Part shown: piece by piece, positions 40,231 to 45,728 of the stretch
Layout of the letters: each line of letters opens with the position of its first letter
Numbering within the stretch: position 1 is the stretch's first letter
From: an uncultured Desulfobacteraceae bacterium
GTDB taxonomy: Bacteria > Desulfobacterota > Desulfobacteria > Desulfobacterales > UBA5852
Direction: 5' to 3'
NCBI GenBank assembly: GCA_942491115.1
Contig: CALNZV010000020.1
Coordinates: 1,149,107-1,213,106 of the forward strand
DNA length: 64,000 nt
Translations under genes and position numbers: made by a program
Notes under the pieces: model-generated
Seen by the model: only the letters and a program-made list of their open reading frames with translations
Database searches by the model: none
Told to the model about the DNA's origin: nothing

Positions 40231-42483
40231 TCAATACCCAACCATGAGGTTGATTCGAGAGGTCAGGTCTGTGGGCGCGTTCAACGGTTGTCCGTCGATG
40301 TCCAACACCGGCACCGTCCCCATCAGGGAATTGGTGAGAATCACCTGGTCGGCGGCAATCAGGTCTTCCGGCATGATCGTCCGCCGTCGGACGCCGTAGC
40401 CCTCCCTGACCAATCGCTTCACGACCACCGATGCCATGACGCCCGGCAGCGCGTGGGGCGACAGGGGAACCACCAAATCCTTTCCAAACAGCAGCAGCAG
40501 ATTGGCCGTATTGGTTTCCGAAACCGTGCCGTCCGGATTGAGGATGAGGGCTTCGTCGGCGCCTTCGCCCGAGGCCCACTGACCGGCCCTGAGGTAGTAG
40601 AGGTAATTCAAGGTTTTCCAGGAGGCCAGGGGACTCTGGCGCGGCTCCGGATAGGTGGCCAGGAAGAGGCCCGGCCGCTTGAGCTTTTCCAAGCGGTGTC
40701 GATAGGGTTTTGCGGTCACGAAAAGGCCGGGTGCCGTTTGGTGCCCGCTGGGGTTGCCTCGCGTGGCAGTGAGCCGGACGGCTGACAGTCCCTCCCCGAG
40801 CTGGTTGCGGTCGATGACCTGCTCGATGACGGCAGGCCAAGTGATATCCGGAAAGCGTTCCGAGGCAAAGAGAGTCTCCCAGGTCAGCCGGAACCGTTTT
40901 AAATGGGCATCAAGATGGAGAGGGCGCCCCCGGTCCACCCGAAGGGTTTCAAAAAAACCGTTACCGTACAGCACACCCTGGTCCGAGATCGATATGGCAG
41001 CCTGCTCCACCGGTGTTAGCCGCCCATTGATCCAGACAACGGGGGATGATGGACGGTCTCGGGCTTCCTTGTCATTGAAGATACCCATCAGGGTCTTTCC
41101 TTTGTGAAGGGTTTCTTCGTATTCGTCCGCCGGGCAGGAATCGAACACGATGCCGCCTCCCACGGAGAAACACAGGCGCTCCTTATAGATGGTGGCGGTC
41201 CGGATGGCGATGGACAAATCGAGGGTGTCATGAAAACTGAAGTAGCCGATGGATCCGGTGTAGAGGTGCCGGCGGTCCGGCTCGAGTTCGTCGATGATCT
41301 CCATTGAGCGGATCTTAGGACACCCGGTAATGGATCCCCCCGGGAAGGTCGCCTTCAGAAGGTCCACCGAATCGGCATCGGCATTCAGGCGGCCCTCCAC
41401 GATGGACACCAGGTGGTAGACATTGTCGTAGGCCTCAACCTTTTTGTGGCGGGCGACGTGCACCGATCCGGCCTCGCATACCTTTCCGATGTCGTTGCGG
41501 AGCAAATCCACGATCATAGAAAGCTCCGCGTCATCCTTAGGGCTTTCCGTCAGGCGTTCTCGCATGGCGAGATCCGCCCTCTCCGTCTTTCCCCGGGGGC
41601 GGGTGCCCTTGATCGGCCGGGTCTCGATGCGCTGGCCGCGGCGACACAGAAATCGTTCCGGAGAGGTGGAAACGATCTGATGGCAGCCGGCGTTGACGAA
41701 GGCAAAAAAAGGTGCCGGATTGCGACGGTAAAGGGCCTTGAACAGGGCAAAGGGGTCACCTGAGAATCCGGTTTCGAATCGTTGGGAGACATTGACCTGA
41801 TAGACGTGGCCATCGGCAATGTATTCCCGGATGCGTTCGACAGCCTCCAGGTAGTCCGGGCGGGAGAAGTTGGATTGAATGGACTCGCCCCGGCAGCTGA
41901 AATCCTCTGGGGGGACGGGAACGTTGCGGAGCCGCTCGAAAAGCCACTGTTTTCGATGGTCGGCTTCCGACAGGTTGCCTGCCTCGGGAAGCGACAGCCA
42001 GGAGTGGCCGGTTTCACGATCGTTGACGAGGATGATCGACGGGGCGTACAGGCAAAGGTGGGGAAGTCCCCACCGGTCCACGGAGGTGCGAGGCAGGGTT
42101 TCGATCAGATCCTTCAGGTCATAGGAGAGATAGCCCATCAGGCCGGCCGATAAGGGCTGTCCCTCAGAAAGGGGGGGAGGGGCCTGAAAATGGCTCAACA
42201 CCGACCGAAGGGCTTCGAAGGGGTCGGCCTCGGTCTCGATGATTCGGTTTCCGGTATCGAGTCGAACACGTCGCTCCCACGCCTTGAGGGTCAGCCATGG
42301 CTTCAACCCAAGGATATCGTAGCGAGCACAGTCATGATCTCCTCCGCTCAATAGGTAAACGGTTCCCTCGGTGTGGGCCAGCCGATGGGCGGCATCGGTC
42401 AATTCCATCGGCAGGATCAGGGATTCTGTGCGGACGTTGCGGACGGGAGGCAGCATCGAAATGAACCGTGACAGAGCCCCCAT
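40231..42483 (-). CDS. pabB: fused aminodeoxychorismate synthase component I / aminodeoxychorismate lyase (PabB-PabC)
   Basis: 750 aa. The N-terminal ~460 aa is a chorismate-binding enzyme (FPGGSITGCPKIRSMEIIDELE, YTGSIGYF). The C-terminal ~270 aa is a class IV aminotransferase fold (GVLYGNGFFETLR...LNGTVSETNTANLLL). Confidence 0.8.
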   Translation of the reverse strand: MGALSRFISMLPPVRNVRTESLILPMELTDAAHRLAHTEGTVYLLSGGDHDCARYDILGLKPWLTLKAWERRVRLDTGNRIIETEADPFEALRSVLSHFQAPPPLSEGQPLSAGLMGYLSYDLKDLIETLPRTSVDRWGLPHLCLYAPSIILVNDRETGHSWLSLPEAGNLSEADHRKQWLFERLRNVPVPPEDFSCRGESIQSNFSRPDYLEAVERIREYIADGHVYQVNVSQRFETGFSGDPFALFKALYRRNPAPFFAFVNAGCHQIVSTSPERFLCRRGQRIETRPIKGTRPRGKTERADLAMRERLTESPKDDAELSMIVDLLRNDIGKVCEAGSVHVARHKKVEAYDNVYHLVSIVEGRLNADADSVDLLKATFPGGSITGCPKIRSMEIIDELEPDRRHLYTGSIGYFSFHDTLDLSIAIRTATIYKERLCFSVGGGIVFDSCPADEYEETLHKGKTLMGIFNDKEARDRPSSPVVWINGRLTPVEQAAISISDQGVLYGNGFFETLRVDRGRPLHLDAHLKRFRLTWETLFASERFPDITWPAVIEQVIDRNQLGEGLSAVRLTATRGNPSGHQTAPGLFVTAKPYRHRLEKLKRPGLFLATYPEPRQSPLASWKTLNYLYYLRAGQWASGEGADEALILNPDGTVSETNTANLLLLFGKDLVVPLSPHALPGVMASVVVKRLVREGYGVRRRTIMPEDLIAADQVILTNSLMGTVPVLDIDGQPLNAPTDLTSRINLMVGY

Positions 42484-42486
42484 GGG

Positions 42487-43086
42487 TTATACTCCAGCCC
42501 CGAGGGGGCCCAGTTGTAGAAAATTGTCGATGATCCGATGGCCGTTTTCCGTTAGAAAGCTTTCGGGGTGGAACTGAACCCCATGAAGGGGGAAGTCCCG
42601 ATGGGAGAGGCCCATCACCACCCCGTCACTGCTGCGGGCCGTTATTTCCATGGCATCGGAAACGTCGACGGCTGCGAGAGAATGATATCGGGCCGCCTTG
42701 AATGGACTGGGCACGCCGGCGAAGATCCCCGAAGCGGAGTGAGTGACGGCACTCGTTTTACCATGAACCGGAATCGGAGCCCTGACCGTCCGACCGCCGA
42801 ACGCCTCGTTCATGCACTGAAGCCCAAGACAGACCCCCATCACGGGTATCTGGCGGTGGAACGTCCGAATCAGAGGAATGGAAATGCCGGCGTGGCTGGG
42901 GTTTTTGGGGCCTGGGCTGATCAACAGGTAGTGGGGGAAATGGGCTTCCGCCTCCCCCAGGGTGAGGGCGTCGCTTCGGTAGACCCGGATGTCCAAGGGG
43001 TAGGCCATGAACATCTGGACCAAATTATAGGTAAAGGAATCGTAATTGTCGATGACCAGAAGTCGAAACACCCTAGCCTCCGCCAT
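42487..43086 (-). CDS. pabA: aminodeoxychorismate/anthranilate synthase component II (glutamine amidotransferase)
   Basis: VIDNYDSFTYNLV, nucleophile block GVCLGLQC, GVQFHPES. ATG at 43086 (the ORF track starts one codon earlier at a TTG). Confidence 0.85.
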   Translation of the reverse strand: MAEARVFRLLVIDNYDSFTYNLVQMFMAYPLDIRVYRSDALTLGEAEAHFPHYLLISPGPKNPSHAGISIPLIRTFHRQIPVMGVCLGLQCMNEAFGGRTVRAPIPVHGKTSAVTHSASGIFAGVPSPFKAARYHSLAAVDVSDAMEITARSSDGVVMGLSHRDFPLHGVQFHPESFLTENGHRIIDNFLQLGPLGAGV

Positions 43087-43109
43087 CAAGCCCTTGCTTC
43101 GGGGTGCCT

Positions 43110-43153
43110 AAAAAAAGCAGGCGTCACCCTTCTTGAGTCTGGGTGGCGCCTGC
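43110..43153 (-). terminator. intrinsic terminator inside the pabA 5' leader
   Basis: On the - strand: GCAGGCGCCACCC agactcaagaa GGGTGACGCCTGC (12 of 13 bp paired) followed by T7. The U-tract ends 23 nt upstream of the pabA ATG, on the same strand as pabA. Confidence 0.7.
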
Positions 43154-43404
43154 CTGACATAACTCAATATATCGATGACACAGATGGACTGCATCCACGT
43201 CGACGGTATTGTTGGATGGATGTAGCGCAATTTATTCACCGGGTCAAGACGGATGCCGGGCTGCTTGCAATACCCTGTCGAACGCCATATAAAGGCGCAA
43301 GTCTGCATCCGGGCGGTGATGATCCCCCATGGGGCTCTCAGCCCTGCCCCGAGACCATGTTCACGCTTTTTTGAAGCTCCGGAGCGAAAAGGATAGACAG
43401 GAGG

Positions 43405-44772
43405 ATGGGAAAATCCAGGCGCCGCCAACGCCGGCAGTCCCAAGACCGGTTCTTGATGGCTCTGGTAGCCAACCGTGACGGGGAAATTTACGAACTGGAG
43501 GGTTTCGCAGCCGTCGGCAGGGATGGACCCCTGATGGAACCGTTGTCTCTGGAGTCCACCATTCCCACACCCCATGGGTCGGAGATCATGTGGCTGCCGG
43601 ACCGTCGGCCCATCGTTTTTGATGTGGAGACCCGTCAATTCGTCGTATTGGAAGAAGACCCCTACCGTACCGGGTCGCCGGTCTATCCGGTTGCGGCGTT
43701 CAATTCTCCCGGATACGTGACGACCCATGTGTCGGCATACAGGGAGACGGGGGACGCTGCCGCGCTGCCGCTGTTTTCCTACGGAGCGGTCGGTTGGCGT
43801 GGTGACAGCTTCCGGTCGACCGTGATCCAGGTGGACCGGGAACCCCGACAGGATCTCCGATTCATGGATCCGTCCGATGTGGAAAAGGGGATCCGGCGGA
43901 TTCGTCGCGAACTGCCCGGCAATCGCCTTCGGGTCCATCTTGAAAAATGCGCCTTGACCTATGGTTGTCCGGCGGGGAAAAATTTCTTTCTGGGTCGCTA
44001 CGAAGCGCCCCTGCCAACCTCCAGAAGCTGCAATGCCCGGTGCCTGGGCTGCCTGTCCTTTCAGGAAAACAGCCTCATTCGGAGCAGCCAGGATCGAATC
44101 GATTTCACCCCGACACCCGATGAAATTGCCGGCGTGGCCCTGACTCACCTTCGGCGGGTCCCCGGCGGGGTGGTGAGTTTCGGCCAGGGATGCGAGGGAG
44201 ACCCCTTGCTGGCGGCCCATGTCATCGAACCCGCGATCCGCAGGATCCGATCGGTATGCCCTCGGGGAACCATCAATATGAACACTAACGCCAGCCGACC
44301 GGATGTGGTGGCATCATTGTTCGAGGCCGGGCTGGACAGCATGCGCGTCAGCCTGAACAGCATAAGAAAAGCCTGTTACGATGCGTATTTTCAGCCCAAC
44401 GGCTACGGTTTTACTGATGTGCTGGCCTCCATCGACCGGGCCATGGCTGCAGGCGGTGCGGTATCACTGAACTACCTCAATCAGCCGGGGGTCACGGACA
44501 CCCCGGAGGAGCGGGACGCCCTCTTTCGATTTCTGGATCGATACCCTGTGCACATGATTCAGTGGCGGAATCTCAACTACGATCCCGTCCGCTACCTGAA
44601 TGCCATGAAGACGGTGGCACCGTTGGGGACTCCGGTCGGTATGGCACGTCTTCTGAACGACATCCGGAAACGGTATCCGGGCCTTATTTTCGGTTATTTC
44701 AATCCGACCAGGGAAACCCTGGCATCGGTCCCCGGCGGGCAGTTGCCGCACCGGAACGATGAGGGGCGGTGA
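43405..44772 (+). CDS. radical SAM protein with an uncharacterised N-terminal domain
   Basis: 455 aa. CX3CX2C cluster motif SCNARCLGC about 210 aa from the N-terminus. Downstream blocks GQGCEGDPLL and NMNTNASRPD. Start uncertain (43405 or 43456). Confidence 0.75.
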   Translation: MGKSRRRQRRQSQDRFLMALVANRDGEIYELEGFAAVGRDGPLMEPLSLESTIPTPHGSEIMWLPDRRPIVFDVETRQFVVLEEDPYRTGSPVYPVAAFNSPGYVTTHVSAYRETGDAAALPLFSYGAVGWRGDSFRSTVIQVDREPRQDLRFMDPSDVEKGIRRIRRELPGNRLRVHLEKCALTYGCPAGKNFFLGRYEAPLPTSRSCNARCLGCLSFQENSLIRSSQDRIDFTPTPDEIAGVALTHLRRVPGGVVSFGQGCEGDPLLAAHVIEPAIRRIRSVCPRGTINMNTNASRPDVVASLFEAGLDSMRVSLNSIRKACYDAYFQPNGYGFTDVLASIDRAMAAGGAVSLNYLNQPGVTDTPEERDALFRFLDRYPVHMIQWRNLNYDPVRYLNAMKTVAPLGTPVGMARLLNDIRKRYPGLIFGYFNPTRETLASVPGGQLPHRNDEGR

Positions 44773-44807: not shown

Positions 44808-45728
44808 ATGACCTGGATCGAATGTAAAGTGACCTATGACAGCAGCCCGACAGTGGCTGCGGCGGAACTTATCGCTGATATTTTCTACCAGTTCGGGGTC
44901 AGGGGCGTGGTGATCGAAGACCCGGACGAGCCGGTTCCTGCCCACGATGCCGGGGTCGAGCTCAAGCCTCCGGAGGTTCATTCGGTTTCCGGATTCTTCC
45001 CCGGGGAATCGGACACGATCGCCGGGTTCGAAGCCGCCCTTCGACGACTTGCCGACAGGGCCGGCATACGGATTTCCCTCCGGTCCCGGTCGGTGGACGA
45101 GGAGGACTGGGCCAAGTCCTGGAAGGCCTTTTTTTTTCCTGAGAGGATCGGCTCCCGTCTGGTGGTCAAACCCAGTTGGAGGACGTTTGACGCTGCCGCC
45201 ACCGATCTCATTATCGACATCGATCCGGGAATGGCCTTCGGCACGGGAACCCACCCGACCACCCGCATGTGTCTTTGCCTGTTGGAACGCCATCTGAAGC
45301 CGGGCCAGCAGGTTCTCGACGTGGGAACCGGTTCCGGGATCCTGATGGTGGCGGCATTGCGCCTCGGCGCCGCCCGGGTGGACGGGGTCGATATCGACGA
45401 GACGGCTGTCGCCATCGCCAGGGAGAACCTGGACCGCAACGGGATATCGGAGGCGAGGTATCAACTGCAACGGGGCCCCCTGGCCGGCAGTGGTTTGGGC
45501 CCCTACGATATTGTCGTGGCCAATATTCTGGCGGAGGTGATCGTCGATATTATGGGGGATATCGGCTCGGTGGTCAGGGATGGGGGGCTTTTTATCGGAT
45601 CCGGCATCATTCCGGGCCGTCTCGACACCGTGACAACGGCGCTGACGGCGGCAGGATTTGTCGATCTGTCCACCGAAACCCAGGATCAGTGGGTGGCGGT
45701 TACCGCCAAACGCCATGGGGGGGGCTGA
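44808..45728 (+). CDS. prmA: ribosomal protein L11 methyltransferase
   Basis: 306 aa. SAM motif VLDVGTGSGILMVAALRLGA, FGTGTHPTT and DIVVANILA. Confidence 0.9.
   Translation: MTWIECKVTYDSSPTVAAAELIADIFYQFGVRGVVIEDPDEPVPAHDAGVELKPPEVHSVSGFFPGESDTIAGFEAALRRLADRAGIRISLRSRSVDEEDWAKSWKAFFFPERIGSRLVVKPSWRTFDAAATDLIIDIDPGMAFGTGTHPTTRMCLCLLERHLKPGQQVLDVGTGSGILMVAALRLGAARVDGVDIDETAVAIARENLDRNGISEARYQLQRGPLAGSGLGPYDIVVANILAEVIVDIMGDIGSVVRDGGLFIGSGIIPGRLDTVTTALTAAGFVDLSTETQDQWVAVTAKRHGGG

Follow-up and report, generated by a model that had tools for sequence, protein, structure and literature searches.

What does an intrinsic terminator do in front of a gene for the synthesis of p-aminobenzoate (pABA)? 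The window analyzed here is a stretch of 64,000 nucleotides (nt) from an uncultured Desulfobacteraceae bacterium, and positions given without a locus name refer to it. On its minus strand, pabA follows a long leader that holds a hairpin with a U run, and a preliminary description of this leader had read it as a riboswitch or attenuator made of some 250 nt of structured RNA and a separate terminator. We found that the terminator hairpin holds up and the long structured leader does not. The conserved portion of the leader is about 56 nt (43165-43110), and its conserved nucleotides overlap the terminator. We propose that this pabA-leader motif is the whole regulatory element, an antiterminator/aptamer hairpin together with an intrinsic terminator. 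The idea of a riboswitch or attenuator was essentially right, in that a conserved cis-regulatory RNA of such a kind appears to be present; the pictured architecture of about 250 nt was not. Judged from its sequence, the element at 43110-43165 is a strong candidate for a compact, highly conserved, widespread, and apparently undescribed terminator-embedded switch.

43110 to 43165, minus strand: pabA-leader motif, GAGUUAUG UC AGGC AGGC GCCACCCAGACUC AAGAA GGGUGACGCCUGC UUUUUUU, the proposed antiterminator/aptamer hairpin and the intrinsic terminator combined
43110 to 43153, minus strand: intrinsic terminator, with the 5' arm at 43153-43141, the loop at 43140-43130, the 3' arm at 43129-43117, and seven U at 43116-43110
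43069 to 43081, minus strand: pabA ribosome-binding site (RBS), GGAGG (43081-43077), and likely start codon, GTG (43071-43069)

The terminator consists of a 5' arm, GCAGGCGCCACCC (43153-43141), and a 3' arm, GGGUGACGCCUGC (43129-43117), which form a stem of 13 bp with a single mismatch, C43146.A43124, around a loop of 11 nt. This is exactly the hairpin that had been described before, with its 13 bp, one C.A mismatch, and seven U on the pabA strand (43153-43110). The GC-rich stem is directly followed by the U tract on the transcribed strand, and termination is predicted. The loop exceeds the usual length for a terminator, and a simple terminator scan missed the hairpin because the loop limit of that scan is 8 nt. 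When folded with ViennaRNA, the hairpin has an energy of -26 kcal/mol (z = -3.8), and 1 of 200 shuffled sequences was equally good; for the 62-nt element, z is -3.7 and none of 200 shuffles was as good. The hairpin is not the terminator of another gene, as had also been argued: it lies within the pabA 5' leader on the pabA strand, and the adjacent gene, which encodes a radical SAM protein (43405-44772, plus strand), is divergent. Nor is there a credible open reading frame (ORF) upstream. One long ORF alone crosses this region, 370 codons at 43108-44220 on the minus strand. It spans both leader and hairpin, with its TAG stop codon immediately behind the U run, and is almost certainly spurious, being antisense to the radical SAM gene and lacking a Pfam match.

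The distance from the terminator to the gene needed correction. The U run does end 23 nt before ATG 43086, as described, but the start of pabA is likely GTG 43071-43069 instead. The gene call in a relative whose PabA is 88% identical (L321) starts at the equivalent GTG. With this start, the U run ends 38 nt before the gene. Both the RBS and the start codon come after the U run and remain free of the terminator fold, and with the RBS at this place, control would be transcriptional.

How far does the conservation extend, along the leader and among bacteria? A PabA protein scan with one genome per species gave 80 loci, and we compared the 336-nt leader with them by BLASTN and nhmmer. Similarity was found only at leader positions 231-296, which correspond to 43174-43109 of the window, and the matches were confined to Desulfobacterota-type relatives, directly upstream of their pabA. 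Comparison of the upstream regions of relatives gave the motif unit GAGUUAUG-N2-4-AGGC-N3-8-GCCAYCCAGRCUC-N0-10-GGRUGGC-U run. A metagenome scan with a motif-only pattern returned at least 120 loci, with the same hairpin in all of them and the U run in nearly all. The motif-based counts in this work (120 loci, 122 copies, and 128 instances) are among the matches listed and are thus lower bounds. We built a covariance model, R1, from the 122 distinct motif copies. It has one hit only in the window (43102-43173, minus strand; 53 bits, E = 1.7e-13), matches the eight Desulfobacterota-type loci only among the 80 PabA loci, and hits each of the 100 listed metagenome loci (L081-L180) exactly once. 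Second copies of the motif were found neither in the window with model R1 nor in these 100 pattern-found loci. A near-identical element is present in more than 130 sulfate-reducer-type bacteria.

Because the motif pattern had fixed the core, we obtained a pattern-independent sample from contigs fetched through PabA homologues alone. It holds three close relatives with conserved synteny (L321-L323; PabA identity of 88, 75, and 73%) and four loci related through PabA to the most divergent lineage that bears the motif (L324-L327). The core is identical in 7 of 7. Natural variants of P1, a helix of the hairpin described below, were sought among the PabA relatives of the most divergent lineage, and none was found; all seven new loci keep the core. 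GAGUUAUG, AGGC, and GCCAYCCAGRCUC are unchanged in 15 of the 15 PabA-selected loci that hold the full 5' part, which are the window, seven full-length genome loci, and L321-L327; L001 is cut by a contig end and holds the 3' part only. The motif was thus found upstream of pabA in L001-L003, L005, L007, L009-L011, and L321-L327, and the PabA proteins of motif-bearing loci are just 50-88% identical to that of the window. A scan of viral contigs with a looser pattern, in which P1 was left free, gave chance hits only. Sequence and structure in this 5' untranslated region (UTR) are conserved across distant species, as is expected of a riboswitch. One of the hosts is a cultured isolate with a complete genome, Desulfosarcina alkanivorans PL12 (L007:2739-2771; NZ_AP021874.1), in which pabA begins about 220 nt downstream of the motif, behind a spacer for which we have no explanation.

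What could such a conserved RNA do? Its first 31 nt or so can form a hairpin of their own, which we propose to be an antiterminator or aptamer.

43135 to 43165, minus strand: proposed antiterminator/aptamer hairpin, from the minimum free energy (MFE) fold of the segment and the RNAalifold consensus
43165-43161 with 43139-43135, minus strand: P1, GAGUU paired with GACUC (GAGUU/GRCUC in the family)
43160, minus strand: bulged A between P1 and P1a
43159-43158 with 43141-43140, minus strand: P1a, UG paired with CA
43157-43155 opposite 43144-43142, minus strand: internal loop, UCA opposite ACC (in the family, N2-4 A opposite A Y C)
43154-43152 with 43147-43145, minus strand: P2, GGC paired with GCC, with the capping loop AGGC at 43151-43148

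The MFE structure of the 5' segment in the window is this hairpin, at -9.1 kcal/mol, and RNAalifold returned the same P1/P1a/P2 hairpin as the consensus. MFE folds of the first ~31 nt contain P1 in 121 and P2 in 120 of the 122 homologues, and 99.7% of the cells in the hairpin are pairable, compared with 6-53% in controls in which the partners were slid. Where the insert is longer, P2 lengthens to 4-5 bp through compensating changes (GGCC..GGCC, GGCU..AGCC, GGCUU..AAGCC, GGUC..GGCC). With these longer inserts, the mean length of P2 is 3.25 bp versus 2.36 +/- 0.05 bp for shuffled inserts, and none of 500 shuffles was as high. A GNRA tetraloop caps P2 in 33 copies. The invariant nucleotides all lie within this 5' hairpin, and its asymmetric internal loop holds an invariant A, A, Y, and C. 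Since the 3' half of the hairpin (GCC-AYC-CA) is the 5' arm of the terminator, the two folds are mutually exclusive. Their mean energies are -8.2 kcal/mol for the hairpin and -22.7 kcal/mol for the terminator fold.

Across the family, the terminator forms by the pairing of [NN]GCCAYCC with GGRUGGC[NN]. The preliminary description had suggested looking for covariation in relatives; the leader motif is conserved in them, and the terminator stem and the P2 extension covary, while P1, P1a, and the P2 core are invariant. At the base of the terminator stem (columns 32-64), 77 of the 122 copies have A-U, 19 have C-G, and 18 have G-C. Columns 31-65 show additional compensated changes, and the Y position (columns 37-58) is C-G in 93 copies, U.G in 13, and U-A in 9. 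A U tract, with at least five U within 10 nt 3' of the stem, is present in 119 of the 122 copies. The 3' arm is merely complementary, and an A.C mismatch is tolerated in 22 of the 122. The C.A mismatch is specific to the window: where the 3' arm has A here, L321 has G and a perfect stem. This G-to-A change weakens the terminator and leaves the conserved hairpin untouched. Pairing of the 3' arm also takes in the P2 loop, AGGC, and part of the AGGC block, and this extends the stem to 13 bp in the window and in L321. High-GC copies in front of sodium:solute symporters (SSF), at L121:2787-2860 (minus strand), L184:492-563 (plus strand), and L110:1043-1114 (plus strand), keep the core and the stem and have a poor U tract or none; these copies may have a different expression platform.

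Which genes stand behind the element? In the window, they form a short operon.

40231 to 43071, minus strand: regulated operon, pabA and fused pabB-pabC
42487 to 43071, minus strand: pabA, class-I glutamine amidotransferase (Pfam PF00117)
40231 to 42483, minus strand: pabB-pabC fusion, with a chorismate-binding domain (PF00425) and a class IV aminotransferase domain (PF01063; ADC lyase)

All of the domains expected of PabA, PabB, and PabC are present, and the fusion protein scores 347.9 bits against the NCBIfam model TIGR00553 (pabB), for which the cutoff is 328.4. The gene downstream of pabB-pabC lies on the opposite strand. PabA is encoded within 400 nt downstream of the motif in 104 of the 128 instances, and PabB/C comes next in 74. 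Among the remaining instances, seven are cut by a contig end and 17 are informative and have no PabA; transporters lie downstream in at least 14 of these 17. The loci with transporters behind the motif are as follows.

L092, L098, L113, L128, L129, L150, L158, and L193: LIV-type ABC systems (Peripla_BP_6 and two BPD_transp_2 permeases)
L110, L121, L134, L153, L168, L174, and L184: SSF symporters

The NCBIfam model nearest to the symporters is PanF, below its cutoff. No folE, folB, folK, folP, or folC was seen behind the motif in the examined instances. The motif has a constant orientation and stands directly before three kinds of functionally related operons, and its genes, the putative importers included, probably belong to one pathway, as is expected for a riboswitch. 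Their shared theme is the supply of pABA, by synthesis or probable uptake. Such a set, one biosynthetic operon and two importer families unrelated to each other, is classic for a cis-regulator that responds to a metabolite.

Other RNA signals were seen near some of these loci. In L003, the pabA motif has an unrelated c-di-GMP-I-GGC riboswitch some 1.3 kb upstream of it (L003:1582-1656, plus strand; 68 bits, with the gathering score at 59). In the L107-like lineage, a TTGACA-17 nt-TATAAG promoter downstream of pabB (L325:3510-3620, L324:3520-3625) is followed by a short leader that ends in a conserved hairpin, GGGGCUCCC..GGGRWGCCC, and seven U; model R1 gives a weak hit there in L325 (14.7 bits).

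What, then, is the remainder of the 250-nt leader? We aligned four syntenic intergenic regions, those of the window and of L321-L323 (alignment A3), and they point to two promoters.

43219 to 43247, minus strand: putative pabA promoter, -35 TTGACC (43247-43242), 17-nt spacer, -10 TACATC (43224-43219)
43265 to 43293, plus strand: putative promoter of the radical SAM gene and prmA, -35 TTGCAA (43265-43270), 17-nt spacer, -10 TATAAA (43288-43293)
43405 to 44772, plus strand: radical SAM gene, 455 amino acids, AGGAGG RBS, divergent from pabA, with a faint MoaA-like match
44808 to 45728, plus strand: prmA, which follows the radical SAM gene

The four syntenic genomes share CTTGACC and the TA of the -10 box without change and at fixed spacing; the pabA promoter site is below the threshold of the simple scan. 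Transcription of pabA would start near 43212, giving about 47 nt of nonconserved leader (43212-43166) before the motif. On the other strand, the TGCAAG and TATA.GG blocks are invariant in A3 and match a sigma-70-like promoter back-to-back with that of pabA. TTGCAA-17-TATAAA is probably a good promoter for the radical SAM operon and would lie outside the pabA transcript. Synteny of the radical SAM/prmA pair with pabA holds in the three closest relatives. Judging from these blocks, most of the 250-nt leader is made up of two conserved putative promoters, placed back-to-back, and the 5' UTR of the radical SAM gene. There is no fixed -10 position relative to the motif across 124 sequences, just an A/U-rich 13 nt before the motif. 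The distance between promoter and motif is variable, and therefore the RNA 5' end cannot be set from the whole family. We found no conserved sequence upstream of the motif that could form a separate aptamer.

We propose that the element is a cis-acting conditional transcription terminator of an undescribed, highly conserved class, in which a factor locks the terminator-embedded hairpin and turns expression on; we would give this proposal an even chance of being correct. Transcription would start at the conserved promoter, about 47 nt upstream of the motif. The first ~31 conserved nt (43165-43135) would fold on emergence into the weak P1/P1a/P2 hairpin. The next 7-13 nt (GGRUGGC...), being complementary to the hairpin's 3' half, would by default displace this hairpin and yield a much stabler GC-rich stem followed by the U run, and transcripts would stop before the pabA RBS. 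A factor that binds and locks the hairpin would block the terminator, allowing transcription of pabA-pabBC; in other genomes, the gene switched on would be a putative importer. The default state should be termination, since the terminator is far stabler than the hairpin. An ON switch is the simplest reading because the invariant nucleotides are in the hairpin, the 3' arm is merely complementary, no aptamer lies upstream, the hairpin comes first, and the terminator is the stabler fold.

We think it most probable that a small molecule is the factor, in which case the element would be an ON-type riboswitch. As the controlled genes all supply pABA, an ON ligand should report pABA demand. By analogy with HMP-PP, our best guess for this ligand is the pterin co-substrate of dihydropteroate synthase, 6-hydroxymethyl-7,8-dihydropterin or its pyrophosphate; some other signal of folate shortage is a further candidate. 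The full form of the proposal is a first riboswitch class dedicated to the pABA branch, with a ~31-nt terminator-embedded aptamer that recognizes the pterin co-substrate or a pABA-demand signal and acts as an ON switch. We hold it tentatively, as slightly less probable than an even chance.

Several points weigh against an ON switch of this kind. There is no covariation evidence for P1, P1a, or the first two pairs of P2, all of which are invariant, and in P1 and P1a this invariance comes in part from the search pattern, which fixed them. The hairpin alone is barely stabler than shuffled sequence (z about -1.4). The pabA promoter of the window is weak by consensus and is drawn from just four genomes. 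Biosynthetic operons are less commonly controlled by ON switches, and our choice of ligand is a guess. A PDB sequence search and NCBIfam gave no clue to the transporter substrates, the nearest models being PanF, PutP, and LivJ-like, all below cutoff. A trans-encoded RNA-binding protein would explain the same anatomy, with the hairpin as the binding site of an antiterminator, by analogy with RAT/BglG-SacY, HutP, or ANTAR systems. Indeed, the anatomy fits the RAT type, an imperfect hairpin of ~30 nt whose 3' half is the 5' arm of the terminator, and near-invariant sequence with little covariation is typical of protein-recognized RNAs. Yet no candidate regulator gene is linked to the motif in the contexts examined, and a cognate antiterminator of the RAT type is not encoded next to the element there; the upstream neighbors differ, among them a radical SAM gene, peptidase C25, UvrD helicase, and CoA transferase. 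The sequences inspected have no ANTAR-like dual hexaloops or TRAP-like triplet repeats, and control of two unrelated transporter families along with one biosynthetic operon is classic for a riboswitch. Protein-dependent antitermination is, in our view, rather unlikely.

A riboswitch of the opposite sign deserves the same scrutiny. The commonest riboswitch logic is feedback repression of biosynthesis and import, and an OFF switch would obey it: the product, pABA or folate, would bind the terminator-containing form and promote termination, repressing synthesis and uptake together. One candidate for the OFF form is an H-type pseudoknot between GAGUU and GRCUC, which can pair in all members; GRCUC is part of the terminator loop, U12 pairs with A or G at column 42, and the sequence of the terminator stem and loop is unusually conserved. 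As a general solution this pseudoknot is unlikely, however. Just 0-2 nt separate GRCUC from the 3' arm in 8 of the 122 pattern hits and in the whole L107-like lineage (L324-L326), which is too short to cross a 5-bp helix, and the pairs that would extend the pseudoknot are at or near chance (column 8-46, 65% paired; column 7-47, 43%). A ligand dependent on the completed terminator hairpin would come too late to affect termination, and upstream conserved sequence for a separate aptamer is absent. These points make an OFF switch distinctly unlikely. The element might also be constitutive, whether as a small RNA that acts in trans and carries its own terminator, as a leader-peptide attenuator, or just as a leaky terminator that keeps pabA at a low level. 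A -10-like box ends 4-7 nt before the motif in many members, which would give a discrete RNA of ~55 nt, and there is an invariant AUG inside GAGUUAUG. We consider a constitutive role very improbable in view of the fixed orientation directly before the three kinds of related operons and of stem and loop sequences that are conserved far beyond the needs of a terminator. A leader peptide as such was rejected: the linkers vary (2, 3, or 4 nt and 3-11 nt), the frame is lost, and in L002 the AUG runs into a stop at the third codon. Finally, the leader could carry the ~250-nt structured aptamer pictured in the preliminary description, THF-like, ZTP-like, or novel, with a CGGAUGC/GCAUCCG helix and a separate terminator. 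The intergenic region is indeed 318-333 nt long with no credible ORF, and the helix exists in the sequence (43311-43305 with 43256-43250, CGGAUGC being one base off the earlier position), but it is not in the element. It lies upstream of the conserved -35 box of pabA, straddles the divergent promoter that this region carries, and is broken in L321. Similarity to relatives is limited to 43174-43109, the whole 345-nt leader has a fold z of -1.4 with 9 of 100 shuffles as good, and Rfam gave no hit at E <= 10. A long aptamer is scarcely credible.

Is the ON-type terminator-embedded candidate already known under another name? Rfam 15 gave no hit at the gathering score in the whole 64-kb window. At E <= 10, nothing meaningful was found in 42950-43550, in particular no THF-I, THF-II, or ZTP, in agreement with the preliminary description, which had seen no convincing match to these three. 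In seven other representatives, searched at E <= 1, the element again had no Rfam match. Sub-threshold hits to weev_FSE, Phe_leader, and ctRNA_pGA1 were discarded, as they reflect hairpin shape only. The element is not THF-I, THF-II, ZTP, T-box, HMP-PP, or another curated Rfam family. We know of no riboswitch for pABA or the pterin precursors of folate. Full-text literature searches, which covered papers outside subscription-only journals, found no pabA or pABA riboswitch or motif and no copy of the motif sequence, and two recent systematic discovery papers from the Breaker laboratory hold nothing relevant. Neither pABA nor pterins are mentioned in a 2022 review of riboswitch ligands (PMC9971707). 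In our judgment, the pabA-leader motif is probably a new class that works by a mechanism of a known kind.

With a validated ligand, the element would become a further class of riboswitch; if this ligand is pABA itself, it would be the first RNA to sense pABA. The proposed switch, if true, would explain how a large group of sulfate-reducing and related anaerobes balance the halves of folate synthesis, and would suggest a function, uptake of pABA or a related compound, for two uncharacterized transporter families. It could also find use as a small biosensor of folate-pathway intermediates or of sulfonamide stress. The hypothesis is directly testable, given an RNA of just 31-62 nt and the existence of cultured hosts such as D. 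alkanivorans PL12.

How does the element compare with known systems? In the RAT/BglG-SacY-LicT systems, an imperfect hairpin of ~30 nt and the 5' arm of an intrinsic terminator overlap, and stabilization of the hairpin leads to read-through. Unlike these, the loci inspected have no PRD-type antiterminator or sugar-PTS genes nearby, and the genes regulated are those for a vitamin precursor. The pbuE (ydhL) adenine riboswitch is a transcriptional switch of the ON type with the 5' arm of the terminator within the aptamer and no separate antiterminator; it differs in that its aptamer is a ~70-nt three-way-junction purine aptamer, dissimilar in sequence and fold. THF-I and ZTP (pfl) are other described riboswitches of folate and one-carbon metabolism, and ZTP is an ON switch that reports folate shortage. 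Both are larger, with unrelated folds, and have no Rfam match to the element. The THF-II riboswitch, or folE motif, occurs only before folE in Rhizobiales and is a translational OFF switch that holds the RBS in P1 (Chen et al. 2019, PMC6800512). The pabA-leader motif shares with it the folate pathway, a small P1-bulge-P2 hairpin with conserved unpaired nucleotides, and restriction to a single bacterial lineage; it differs in preceding only genes for pABA supply, in using a terminator, and in having no match to the Rfam model. The closest parallel in design is the validated HMP-PP (thiS) riboswitch, a small aptamer embedded in a terminator, in which the ligand suppresses termination (Atilho et al. 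2019, PMC6478431). The pabA element does not belong to that class: it has no Rfam hit to it and no similarity in sequence or covariance model, its genes are pabABC and transporters, its pathway is that of folate rather than thiamin, and its hosts are Desulfobacterota-type bacteria. The architecture alone is alike, a very small aptamer, here a proposed one, almost wholly within an otherwise classic intrinsic terminator, and if the proposal is true, this would be a second example of that very compact design. The HMP-PP switch adjusts one branch of a cofactor pathway with two branches to the precursor that the other supplies, and we propose the same logic for pABA versus pterin.

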